From the sequence record MZ234025.1: a stretch of 64,000 bases of DNA. One strand, 5' to 3'. Position numbers and translations under genes: made by a program. Below the pieces are notes generated by a model. That model saw nothing but the letters and a program-made list of their open reading frames with translations. It was not told the origin of the DNA and did no database searches. Below are positions 56,055 to 57,047 of this stretch, in pieces (position 1 is the stretch's first letter; every line of letters begins with the position of its first letter). This DNA is from Escherichia phage vB_EcoM-172859UKE1.

Positions 56055-57047
56055 ATGTTACCTGTCGTCGGAAAACTTATTTCTCCAAAAGAACTGGCTG
56101 AGATTATTCCTTTGTCGGAAGCTTACGCATCACAAGTGGCTTCTCATCGCGAACAAGTTAATTCGATTATGAACGGTGAAGACCCACGCAAACTTATTGT
56201 TGTAGGTCCTTGTTCAATTCATGACCCTATTGCTGCTGTTGAATACGGCAAACGTCTGGCTGAACTTCAAACTCGTCTTCCTAATGTTCTGTTAGTGATG
56301 CGCGTTTATTTTGAAAAGCCTCGAACTACCGTAGGTTGGAAAGGTCTTGTAAATGATCCATATCTTGACGGAAGTTTTGATATGAACCACGGTCTTATAG
56401 TTGCACGAACATTGTGTCGTAAACTTCTACGTATGGGACTTCCATTAGCAACTGAAGTATTAGACCCATTCACGATTAAGTATCTTTCTGGTATTTTCTC
56501 ATGGGTTGCTATTGGCGCCCGTACGACTGAAAGTCAGACACATCGTGAAATTGCTTCAGGTCTACCGATGTGCGTAGGCTTCAAGAACGCAACCAATGGT
56601 TCTATTAAAGTAGCTACAGACGCGATGTATAGTGCCGCCTGGCCTCATCGGTATATGGGTATGGACGTCGATGGTACTGTAGGCATTGTTGAAGCTGAAG
56701 GTAATCAGAATACGCATATCGTATTGCGTGGCGGGACCAACGGCCCGAACTATCATTCTTCTGATATTCAAGAAGCTTCTAACAAAGCAAGGGCAGTAGG
56801 TCTGAATCATTATGTAATGGTTGACTGTAGCCATGCAAACGCTGCTGGGCATTATAGCAATCAAATTGGTATTGGTAAAAATTTAGCAGCTAATGATTTG
56901 GTCAAAGGAATTATGATAGAATCATTCCTACATGAAGGAAATCAAAAAATTTCTGATAATATGTCCTATGGCGTTTCCGTTACCGATGCGTGCATCAGTT
57001 GGGAACAAACTAAAGAGCTGTTAACTTATATTAATAAGGTTCAATAA
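56055..57047 (+). CDS. 3-deoxy-D-arabino-heptulosonate-7-phosphate (DAHP) synthase, class I (AroG/AroF-like)
   Basis: Colinear with E. coli AroG as recalled: [53 protein letters not shown].IKVA; stop overlaps cd ATG. Confidence 0.8.
   Translation: [330 protein letters not shown]

Follow-up and report, generated by a model that had tools for sequence, protein, structure and literature searches.

Introduction

What might the enzyme that opens the shikimate pathway do for a lytic phage? The question is raised by an ORF of 330 amino acids, which starts with ATG and occupies positions 56055 to 57047 on the plus strand of a 64,000-nucleotide stretch (the window) of the genome of Escherichia phage vB_EcoM-172859UKE1 (MZ234025.1). 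An earlier sequence-only reading had described the ORF with these coordinates as a full-length class I DAHP synthase (DAHPS) of the AroF/G/H type. For its purpose, it had considered the supply of aromatic amino acids, a sink for E4P and PEP, a feedback-insensitive isozyme and a different sugar-phosphate substrate. The gene is not new: GenBank annotations of it exist in well over 100 phage records, most of the 139 records with a near-identical copy name it DAHP synthase, and its presence is routine database knowledge. In the literature outside subscription journals, we found no functional study of a phage DAHPS, just a passing mention of the domain for ORF 64 of phiC120. What is new is that the gene shares one genomic slot in six genera, that the phage proteins form a clade of their own with a rebuilt allosteric pocket and a short N-terminus, and that this lone shikimate enzyme is dispensable.

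Family, fold and catalytic residues

Judged by its sequence and its structure model, the ORF encodes a full-length type Iα DAHP synthase. All four conserved blocks quoted in the earlier reading are found in the translation, and HMM matches lie above the family cutoffs over the entire length: Pfam DAHP_synth_1 (PF00793) with an E-value of 5.7e-75 and 252 bits (cutoff 25.5), the NCBIfam equivalog TIGR00034 (aroFGH) with 427.5 bits (cutoff 173.2) and PRK12755 with 455 bits (cutoff 343). Among known structures, E. coli AroF (6agm) is matched across residues 8-327 (E=1.3e-104), which likewise bears out the class assignment; sequence identity is 51% to AroF, 47% to AroG and 44% to AroH of E. coli. 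The AlphaFold2 (AF2) model (pLDDT 93, pTM 0.92) superimposes with a TM score of 0.96 and an rmsd of 1.4-1.5 Å on 5cks, 1kfl and 4hso, AroG and NmeDAH7PS among them. In the model, a (β/α)8 barrel carries the extra two-stranded β-hairpin (β6a/6b), whose strands are formed by residues 198-203 and 209-214. The protein is 18-26 residues shorter than AroG, AroF and AroH because its N-terminus and C-terminal tail are reduced and two internal loops carry short deletions; however, this compact architecture is common to all phage homologues and does not mark a truncated remnant of a host gene.

Alignment with AroG, a check that the sequence-only reading had proposed, revealed that all four metal ligands are intact: C53, H260, E289 and D311 correspond to C61, H268, E302 and D326 of AroG. 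They are kept in all seven aligned homologues of T4-like phages from six genera and in 140-147 of 150 diverse representatives. The same seven phage proteins conserve the ten residues that bind PEP and E4P, all of which are intact in the window protein (R83, K88, P89, R90, T91, G154, A155, R156, K177 and R225). The phage enzyme is thus predicted from its residues to be catalytically competent and metal-dependent and would convert PEP and E4P to DAHP and Pi. The features of the locus are collected in Table 1.

Table 1. Coordinates of the DAHPS gene, its functional elements and its surroundings in the window
Feature	Position	Strand	Basis
Sigma-70/T4-early-type promoter-like site (TTTACA, 17 nt, TACTAT, upstream TG) between the cd.3 and cd.2 homologues; putative function	55641..55669	+	Consensus match
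Resident cd.2 homologue (DUF7320), opening the predicted early transcript	55698..55934	+	ORF call, domain and PHROG match
41-aa ORF, putative relic of a foreign cd.2 that moved with the DAHPS cassette	55921..56046	+	phrog_15876; weak match to the C-terminus of the cd.2 family phrog_1504
Imperfect direct repeat, left copy ATAATGAGAGCTATCTCAT, bounding the 1,113-bp cassette	55931..55949	+	Comparison with RB69
CDS, type Iα DAHP synthase (3-deoxy-7-phosphoheptulonate synthase), phage clade	56055..57047	+	ORF call, Pfam, NCBIfam, PDB sequence match, phrog_5045, AF2
Cys53 codon, metal ligand, equivalent to AroG Cys61	56211..56213	+	Residue mapping
KPRT motif (Lys88-Pro89-Arg90-Thr91), binding PEP and the E4P phosphate	56316..56327	+	Alignment; invariant in all phage homologues
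DPFTIK (residues 137-142), remodelled wall of the allosteric pocket; cellular D-x-x-x-P-Q, AroG P150/Q151	56463..56480	+	Alignment; I141 in 30/31, K/R142 in 31/31
Pro171 in place of the inhibitor-binding Ser (AroG S180/AroF S181)	56565..56567	+	Pro in 31/31 phage, Ser in 96/98 cellular proteins
β-hairpin of the allosteric machinery with Tyr200 (AroG F209) and Ala214 (AroG T223)	56652..56696	+	Tyr 31/31 versus Phe 96/98; Ala 31/31 versus Thr 98/98
Imperfect direct repeat, right copy ATAATGAAAGCTAGCACAT, coinciding with the cd start	57044..57062	+	Comparison with RB69
TAATG, DAHPS stop (TAA 57045-57047) and cd start (ATG 57047-57049), one-base overlap	57045..57049	+	Sequence
cd, dCMP deaminase, 193 aa, directly downstream of DAHPS	57047..57628	+	PF00383, E 1.6e-26

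Genomic context and expression

As described previously, the gene lies between pseT and cd, and a Shine-Dalgarno-like AAGGA is located at 56045-56049, five bases 5' of the ATG. The overlap of its stop codon with the cd start holds and consists of one shared A; the TAATGA sequence spans 57045-57050, however, and not 57045-57048 as had been given. Translational coupling to cd, which had been derived from this overlap, may occur in the window, but it is not a conserved feature, since Winklervirus, Kagamiyamavirus and Bragavirus have one or two ORFs between DAHPS and cd. The statement that T4 has only small ORFs in this interval agrees with the T4 record, where cd.1 to cd.5 are found.

At the cd.2/cd junction of RB69, the direct repeat occurs just once, so that this phage represents the empty site. 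The 41-aa ORF is 44-51% identical to cd.2 of Kanagawavirus and Marfavirus, compared with 28% to the cd.2 of the window itself, and DAHPS has probably been exchanged among T4-like phage lineages as a small cassette. The promoter-like site upstream of cd.2 is identical in RB69, and the T4 record has the early promoter Pe133295 annotated at the equivalent intergenic position; promoter-like sites in the region number 19, against 18.5 expected by chance. No match to the T4 late promoter TATAAATA is present upstream of the DAHPS gene, the nearest one being located downstream at 58317. DAHPS is probably transcribed early together with cd, from the promoter upstream of cd.2.

Distribution, origin and selection

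The window belongs to a Mosigvirus, and its DAHPS is a typical Mosigvirus allele: 139 phage records carry a near-identical protein (95-100% identity), and the gene is present in about 92% of Mosigvirus records. A survey of T4-like genomes, as had been suggested, revealed that the pseT-cd slot holds DAHPS in Mosigvirus, Kanagawavirus, Kagamiyamavirus, Marfavirus, Winklervirus and Bragavirus. The window ORF is a member of phrog_5045 (E 5.9e-182, residues 1-330 against profile positions 8-337 of 341) and does not differ from the genes that GenBank names 'phospho-2-dehydro-3-deoxyheptonate aldolase' in these six genera. The PHROGs category of the family, 'moron, auxiliary metabolic gene and host takeover', is in line with the earlier proposal of a candidate auxiliary metabolic gene.

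In a neighbour-joining tree, which leaves the cellular sister group without placement, the phage proteins form one clade with a bootstrap value of 91/100. Cellular homologues are at most about 55% identical (the best about 50-55%), and the GC content of the gene, 41%, is at phage level. Together with monophyly, these values rule out a recent host capture. The dN/dS ratio of 0.14-0.20 indicates purifying selection, similar to pseT and cd. Since the gene is full length, under such selection, monophyletic, of phage-level GC and present in at least six genera, both a remnant and a recent capture are excluded, and the clade is probably a long-standing resident of the pseT-cd slot in T4-like Enterobacterales phages.

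The gene is absent from T4, as had been noted, and from RB69, which belongs to the same genus as the window. DAHPS is thus accessory and dispensable, and as both phages grow without it, any benefit must be conditional. AroB was found in no T4-like phage, compared with 212 phage records with DAHPS; it occurs only in contamination-like records, which rules out a larger phage shikimate module. DAHPS is therefore the sole shikimate-pathway enzyme of the T4-like phages that carry it.

A remodelled allosteric pocket

In cellular enzymes, the Phe site is made by the N-terminal extension and the β-hairpin (PMC4735112), and Q151/Q152 and S180/S181 contact the main chain of the inhibitor (PMC9529685). 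The exchanges P150L, S180F, L175D and F209A lead to feedback-resistant enzymes (PMC9529685), and so does deletion of Ile11 in AroF (PMC10729320). When the 31 proteins of the phage clade were compared with the 98 nearest cellular enzymes, the inhibitor-contacting residues turned out to be replaced at the sequence level. In AroG numbering, Q151K/R, S180P, F209Y, T223A and L/M175I are found in 31 of 31 clade members and P150I in 30 of 31. The nearest cellular enzymes, by contrast, have Q151 in 97, S180 and F209 in 96 each, T223 in all 98 and P150 in 90 cases. None of the 150 diverse representatives carries more than two of the six phage pocket residues, with Pro at position 180 also occurring in some cellular enzymes (22/150). 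The N-terminus is altered as well: 48-52 residues precede the catalytic Cys in all 31 phage proteins and at least 58 in the 98 cellular ones, so that the phage N-terminus is at least six residues shorter than that of any of them. The segment aligned to AroF residues 2-10 is missing from the phage protein, and none of the 31 phage proteins has the complete N-terminal extension, which finishes the allosteric site of the partner subunit.

Because the inhibitor site is rebuilt in every clade member, feedback insensitivity is predicted, and the phage DAHP synthase is probably feedback-insensitive. Among the purposes that had been considered, the isozyme without feedback control is the favoured one. 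A Lys at position 151 could still pair with a carboxylate.

It is unlikely that the phage enzyme is instead an ordinary Tyr-type, AroF-like DAHP synthase under feedback control, which would merely add capacity during infection. AroF is the nearest characterized relative, and the phage protein shares with it a Gly at AroG position 211, as in the Tyr-sensitive enzyme, and a Pro at position 147; the pocket residues Asp146, Leu179 and Val221, like Gly211, are retained. However, the three positions Q151, S180 and P150, each of which impairs feedback inhibition when mutated (PMC9529685) and which are kept in 90-97 of the 98 nearest cellular enzymes, are all replaced in the phage clade. The same is true of F209 and T223, and the clade also lacks the N-terminal segment needed to complete the site.

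The second alternative is that the pocket has been re-tuned as an allosteric or docking site for another ligand or partner, for instance chorismate, prephenate, a nucleotide or a phage protein. Residues 125-172 are identical, apart from one S/T position, in seven aligned homologues of T4-like phages from six genera, which otherwise share no more than 59-77% of their residues with the window protein. Residues ~139-149 have an entropy of 0.23 in the phage clade compared with 1.04 in cellular enzymes, and the new Lys/Arg at AroG position 151 is invariant. The remodelled pocket is thus strictly conserved and not decayed, in keeping with a site where binding still takes place. On the other hand, part of the conserved block is catalytic and conserved in all DAHP synthases, and its conservation could also reflect packing of the tight-dimer interface after loss of the N-terminal strand. 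We regard a re-tuned site as doubtful, and it is similarly doubtful that DPFTIK, Pro171, Tyr200, Ala214 and the short N-terminus form a new site by which a phage-specific signal controls shikimate entry or the use of E4P and PEP. If true, a virus would rewire the regulation of a core host pathway, beyond copying an enzyme.

Possible roles during infection

On balance, and with modest confidence, we favour an early-expressed, feedback-insensitive DAHP synthase that would supply the host shikimate pathway. The inhibitor site, which is composed of the N-terminal extension of one subunit and the 146-151 loop, Ser180 and the β-hairpin of the other, is rebuilt in the phage clade, and the aromatic amino acids Phe, Tyr and Trp would not inhibit the phage enzyme. 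As T4-like phages shut off host gene expression, the host is unable to replenish AroF, AroG and AroH once infection has started. A constitutive phage enzyme at the single committed, flux-controlling step would keep DAHP, chorismate and aromatic amino acids flowing, with the downstream steps carried out by the remaining, largely unregulated pathway enzymes of the host. The proteins of the window contain 4.2% Tyr and 4.5% Phe, values that are higher than those of E. coli proteins with roughly 2.8% and 3.9%, respectively. However, PheA, TyrA and TrpE of the host stay feedback-controlled, so that extra DAHP need not raise the levels of aromatic amino acids.

That the enzyme acts as a sink for E4P and PEP, re-routing central carbon without its aromatic products being the point, seems quite improbable. 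In one variant, removal of E4P would pull transketolase toward pentose phosphates, which could serve nucleotides or the UDP-arabinose of the Mosigvirus DNA modification. The gene sits in the nucleotide-metabolism block beside cd, and many DAHPS-positive genera have the arabinose-5-phosphate isomerase of the arabinosyl-5-hydroxycytosine pathway (PMC13326640). However, RB69 arabinosylates its DNA without a DAHPS gene, and the published pathway is complete without it (PMC13326640); this paper (NAR 2026) makes no mention of the gene. Since RB69 lacks the gene, DAHPS is not part of DNA arabinosylation, and co-occurrence with the isomerase fails in both directions, which rules out a strict link. About 25 Klebsiella phage records have DAHPS, but isomerase matches occur in at most three Klebsiella records; conversely, the isomerase is present in 57 Acinetobacter phage records, where the only DAHPS matches look like bacterial contamination, and none of the listed isomerase-positive Yersinia phages is among the DAHPS matches. 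Nor does DAHPS co-localise with the arabinosyl-5-hydroxycytosine module (RB69 gp45-55; Afh genes of HY126), as it lies ~65 kb from the arabinosylation cluster in the closest relative.

Use of another aldose phosphate, such as arabinose-5-phosphate in the manner of KDO8P synthase (KDO8PS), is highly improbable, and the same holds for a host gene that was captured and persists as an inactive remnant. The KPR(T/S) motif separates DAHPS from KDO8PS, which has KANRS, and E. coli DAHPS accepts five-carbon sugars poorly. The two families are homologous and DAHPS-carrying phages make arabinose-5-phosphate (PMC13326640), but KPRT and all E4P/PEP ligands are conserved and the NCBIfam scan of the protein returned DAHPS models alone, at equivalog level, and no KdsA model, so that motifs and HMMs disfavour the different substrate that had been considered and rule out a KDO8PS-like switch.

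Comparison with known systems and significance

The phage enzyme resembles E. coli AroF (6agm/6agl), AroG and AroH in family, in the (β/α)8 fold with the type Iα β-hairpin and in its metal and substrate ligands. It differs from them in an N-terminus that is 7-9 residues shorter and lacks the segment with N8 of AroF or D6-D7 of AroG, and in the pocket residues (P150I, Q151K, S180P, F209Y, T223A and L/M175I). In addition, two loops have short deletions, one extra residue is present at RGGxxGPNY and the C-terminal tail is reduced. Furthermore, the gene resides in a lytic phage and lacks a host promoter under TyrR or TrpR control, and its product is predicted to be feedback-insensitive. Lone host-like enzymes at a controlling step are likewise known from cyanophages, whose pentose-phosphate and photosynthesis genes are carried by lytic phages and dispensable in the laboratory; however, these auxiliary metabolic genes concern other pathways and other hosts than DAHPS, which stands at the shikimate entry in phages of enteric bacteria. 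The changes in the phage protein fall on the same positions or structural elements as those of the engineered enzymes AroG P150L, S180F, L175D and F209A and AroF ΔIle11 (PMC9529685, PMC10729320). Unlike these, the phage clade naturally combines several resistance-type changes and keeps them invariant; their effect is a predicted one, because the laboratory mutations introduced residues other than the Ile, Lys, Pro and Tyr of the phage proteins.

Besides Mosigvirus, five further genera of T4-like phages that infect enteric bacteria carry DAHPS, and several of these phages are being developed for therapy. Should the enzyme be feedback-insensitive, it would represent a naturally evolved resistant DAHP synthase that could serve the production of aromatic compounds, and it would provide a clear natural case of a lytic phage overriding the control that end products exert on amino-acid biosynthesis in a host that is well understood.

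Identity and genomic context of the phage enzyme

The ORF upstream of the dCMP deaminase gene cd encodes a real, intact type I-alpha 3-deoxy-7-phosphoheptulonate (DAHP) synthase that is under selection; this enzyme catalyzes the first step of the shikimate pathway. An earlier sequence-only reading is confirmed in its observation and supported in its interpretation: all protein blocks that it quoted are present in the translation. The assignment as a DAHP synthase is supported by matches to Pfam DAHP_synth_1 (E 5.7e-75) and the NCBIfam equivalog TIGR00034 aroFGH (427 bits, cutoff 173) and by a sequence match of residues 8-327 to the solved structure of E. 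coli AroF (E 1e-104). The protein is 51%, 47% and 44% identical to E. coli AroF, AroG and AroH, respectively. A confident AlphaFold2 model built with 56 homologues as input (pLDDT 93, pTM 0.92) matches the folds of AroG and the N. meningitidis enzyme (TM 0.96, rmsd ~1.4 Å). In the alignment to AroG that the same reading had proposed, the four metal ligands C61, H268, E302 and D326 correspond to C53, H260, E289 and D311, and the phosphoenolpyruvate (PEP) and erythrose-4-phosphate (E4P) ligands R92, K97, P98, R99, T100, G163, A164, R165, K186 and R234 (AroG numbering) are all kept. Both sets of residues are likewise retained in 7 of 7 aligned T4-like phage homologues from six genera. An NCBIfam scan returned DAHP synthase models only and no match to KDO8P synthase models. 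dN/dS among the phage homologues is 0.14-0.20 (0.16 at a dS of 0.62 for the unsaturated Entb_45/PEi26 pair), which is similar to that of the neighbouring pseT and somewhat higher than that of cd. The conserved ligands, the model matches and the low dN/dS indicate that the gene is kept as a working enzyme, with E4P as the expected substrate.

Sequence databases already list and annotate this gene. Using tblastn, the protein was matched in 212 phage records, 139 of them at 95-100% identity, and most are annotated as phospho-2-dehydro-3-deoxyheptonate aldolase, aroF or DAHP synthase I alpha; PHROGs places it in phrog_5045 (E 5.9e-182), in the auxiliary-metabolic-gene category. No functional work on the phage enzyme was found in the searchable literature, where a passing domain mention for ORF 64 of phiC120 was the sole match (PMC8022965).

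The phage belongs to the genus Mosigvirus (T4 relatives of the RB69 group), and the window is 99% identical to Escherichia phage 348Ecol098PP over 4 kb. At the locus, pseT is followed by four small ORFs (homologues of cd.4, an RB69 ORF, cd.3 and cd.2), a 41-aa ORF, the DAHP synthase gene, cd, a 31.1-like ORF, gene 31 and rIII; the T4 counterpart of the slot holds cd.1. AAGGA is found five bases ahead of the DAHP synthase ATG. The overlap with cd, on which the sequence-only reading based translational coupling, is present in the window, but neither overlap nor direct abutment is a conserved trait, since one or two ORFs separate the two genes in Winklervirus, Kagamiyamavirus and Bragavirus. RB69 has an identical copy of the promoter-like site upstream of cd.2, and the early promoter Pe133295 is annotated at the equivalent intergenic position in the T4 record. 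Neither a terminator-like site nor a late promoter was found between this site and the DAHP synthase gene; the number of promoter-like matches in this region is at the level expected by chance. It is reasonable to assume that the gene would be co-transcribed early with cd.2 and cd from this putative promoter.

Features of the DAHP synthase locus in window coordinates
Feature	Position	Strand	Remarks
T4-early-type promoter-like site	55641-55669		TTTACA, 17 nt, TACTAT, upstream TG; between cd.3 and cd.2 homologues
41-aa ORF	55921-56046		relic of a foreign cd.2
Left direct repeat (19 bp, imperfect)	55931-55949		ATAATGAGAGCTATCTCAT
DAHP synthase ORF	56055-57047	+	ATG start, 330 residues
Right direct repeat (19 bp, imperfect)	57044-57062		ATAATGAAAGCTAGCACAT
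DAHP synthase stop TAA	57045-57047	+	overlaps cd ATG (57047-57049)

Distribution and origin

The slot between pseT and cd holds a DAHP synthase gene in six genera, namely Mosigvirus, Kanagawavirus (Entb_45, PEi26), Kagamiyamavirus (EcS1), Marfavirus (Klebsiella PWKp18), Winklervirus (Serratia X20) and Bragavirus (Proteus PM2); among Mosigvirus-type records, ~139 of ~151 carry it (counted at ≥95% identity). Neighbour-joining analysis of 130 sequences placed the 31 phage-type proteins in a single clade (91 of 100 bootstraps), for which no cellular sister group was resolved. Neither a search of 5.8 billion proteins nor an exhaustive one covering 1.8 billion cluster representatives identified a cellular protein more than ~55% identical to the phage enzyme, and the GC content of the gene (41%) is at phage level. 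Judged from these sequence comparisons, the acquisition by phages is old. A recent capture from a host is ruled out by the low cellular identity, the single phage clade and the phage-level GC content.

The borders of the gene suggest how it may have reached the RB69-like backbone. The 41-aa ORF and the DAHP synthase gene form a cassette of 1,113 bp bounded by the two copies of an imperfect direct repeat, and RB69 has exactly one repeat copy, at the cd.2|cd junction (around 7252 of the RB69 locus; record 134251). The 41-aa ORF shares 44-51% identity, and a SYLITIE motif, with the C-terminal part of Kanagawavirus and Marfavirus cd.2 but only 28% identity with the resident cd.2 of the window, and the Mosigvirus enzymes group with Kanagawavirus proteins in the tree. 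Between the window and APCEc01, a single genome pair, dS is 0.018 for the DAHP synthase gene (56055-57044), far below that of cd (0.19; 57047-57625) and pseT (0.12; 54059-54955), which suggests a recent spread of the cassette within Mosigvirus. Together, these observations point to recombination with a different T4-like lineage as the way in which the cassette entered the backbone; alternatively, RB69 may have lost it by precise deletion between the repeats. RB69 cd (NC_004928; 6743-7252 of its locus) is annotated with 169 aa, compared to 193 aa in the window and T4, and a 76-nt unannotated gap precedes gene 31.1. The short cd may reflect a 3' frameshift or sequencing error; such errors have been reported elsewhere in this record (PMC13326640).

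A distant DAHP synthase (38% identity) is encoded at 4899-6062 in the unrelated, non-T4-like Aeromonas phage HJ05 (79 kb). It has a long N-terminal extension and also Pro at the Ser180 position, and lies directly upstream of a gene (6196-6546) with an Acb2/Tad1 hairpin domain of the anti-CBASS/anti-Thoeris sponge family; a methyltransferase gene and an Asn-synthase-like gene are nearby. The surroundings resemble an accessory or anti-defence region, into which the gene seems to have been acquired independently.

A rebuilt allosteric site

Two subunits contribute to the inhibitor site of type I-alpha enzymes, one with its N-terminal extension and the other with the 146-151 loop, Ser180 and a beta-hairpin (PMC4735112), and the inhibitor main chain is bound by Gln151/152 and Ser180/181 (PMC9529685). 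Feedback-resistant variants include AroG P150L, S180F, L175D and F209A (PMC9529685) and AroF lacking Ile11 (PMC10729320). The comparison with AroG, which the sequence-only reading had also suggested for this pocket, revealed that it is rebuilt throughout the phage clade.

Feedback-pocket positions (AroG numbering) in the phage clade (n=31) and the 98 closest cellular enzymes
Position	Phage	Cellular
150	Ile 30/31	Pro 90/98
151	Lys/Arg 31/31	Gln 97/98
175	Ile 31/31	Met 77/90 after dereplication
180	Pro 31/31	Ser 96/98
209	Tyr 31/31	Phe 96/98
223	Ala 31/31	Thr 98/98
Residues ahead of catalytic Cys	48-52	≥58 in 98/98

At most two of the six phage pocket residues are present in any of 150 diverse family representatives. 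A 48-residue block around the pocket is identical in the 7 aligned T4-like homologues, proteins that otherwise share only 59-77% identity with that of the window, and the region of residues 139-149 is far more conserved in the phage clade than in cellular enzymes. From the sequences, the canonical feedback by aromatic amino acids is predicted to be lost. The strict conservation of the rebuilt pocket leaves room for a different ligand or a structural role.

Possible role during infection

Entry into the shikimate pathway is controlled at DAHP synthase via allosteric feedback (PMC4735112). DAHP synthase is the sole shikimate enzyme of these phages; AroB, which catalyzes the next step, was not found in T4-like phages, and the 16 'phage' records with AroB all look like bacterial contamination. 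Several phage-collection records, on large or very short contigs, contain housekeeping genes of the host (aroB, kdsD and aroF, with identities at bacterial levels), namely CAKLQH020000003/43/56 ('Acinetobacter phage MD-2021a'), AGRM01000002/3, AFYI01000003 and several short OR84x/OR85x records; they look like bacterial contamination, which inflates 'phage' counts for metabolic genes. T4-like phages shut off host transcription, so that an infected cell in which AroF, AroG and AroH are repressed or inhibited could not react when aromatic compounds are needed. The window's proteins contain 4.2% Tyr and 4.5% Phe, more than the E. coli average, because the genome is AT-rich. The simplest reading is that a constitutive phage enzyme at the pathway gate would feed the remaining enzymes of the host. 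Its benefit must be conditional, since T4 and RB69 lack the gene.

The enzyme may also act as an E4P sink, an idea that found no specific support. A link to DNA arabinosylation was tested because DAHP synthase uses another pentose-phosphate intermediate and is related to KDO8P synthase, which uses arabinose-5-phosphate. Mosigvirus DNA contains arabinosylated 5-hydroxycytosine, whose sugar is derived from ribulose-5-phosphate via a phage arabinose-5-phosphate isomerase; the paper describing this does not mention the DAHP synthase gene (PMC13326640). The link was set aside: RB69 DNA is arabinosylated, yet RB69 has no DAHP synthase, the arabinosylation module is ~65 kb away, and co-occurrence fails. 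Among Klebsiella phage records, ~25 have DAHP synthase and at most three an isomerase match; 57 Acinetobacter phage records carry the isomerase; the only DAHP synthase matches among Acinetobacter records look like bacterial contamination; none of the listed isomerase-positive Yersinia phages is among the DAHP synthase matches. Where the two genes do occur together, shared ancestry is the best explanation. In 348Ecol098PP, the closest relative, a full arabinosyl-5-hydroxycytosine cluster adjoins the DNA polymerase gene beyond the window (6821-13368 of its locus) and comprises a phosphosugar isomerase, a nucleotidyltransferase/kinase, a HAD phosphatase, a peptidase U32-like protein, a ThyA-like 5hodCMP synthase, a glycosyltransferase-sized ORF and a P-loop kinase; by analogy, the DNA of the window phage is very probably arabinosylated.

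What is new, and testable, is the rebuilding of the allosteric site across the whole phage clade, which predicts a naturally feedback-insensitive DAHP synthase or, with lower probability, an enzyme responding to some other signal.
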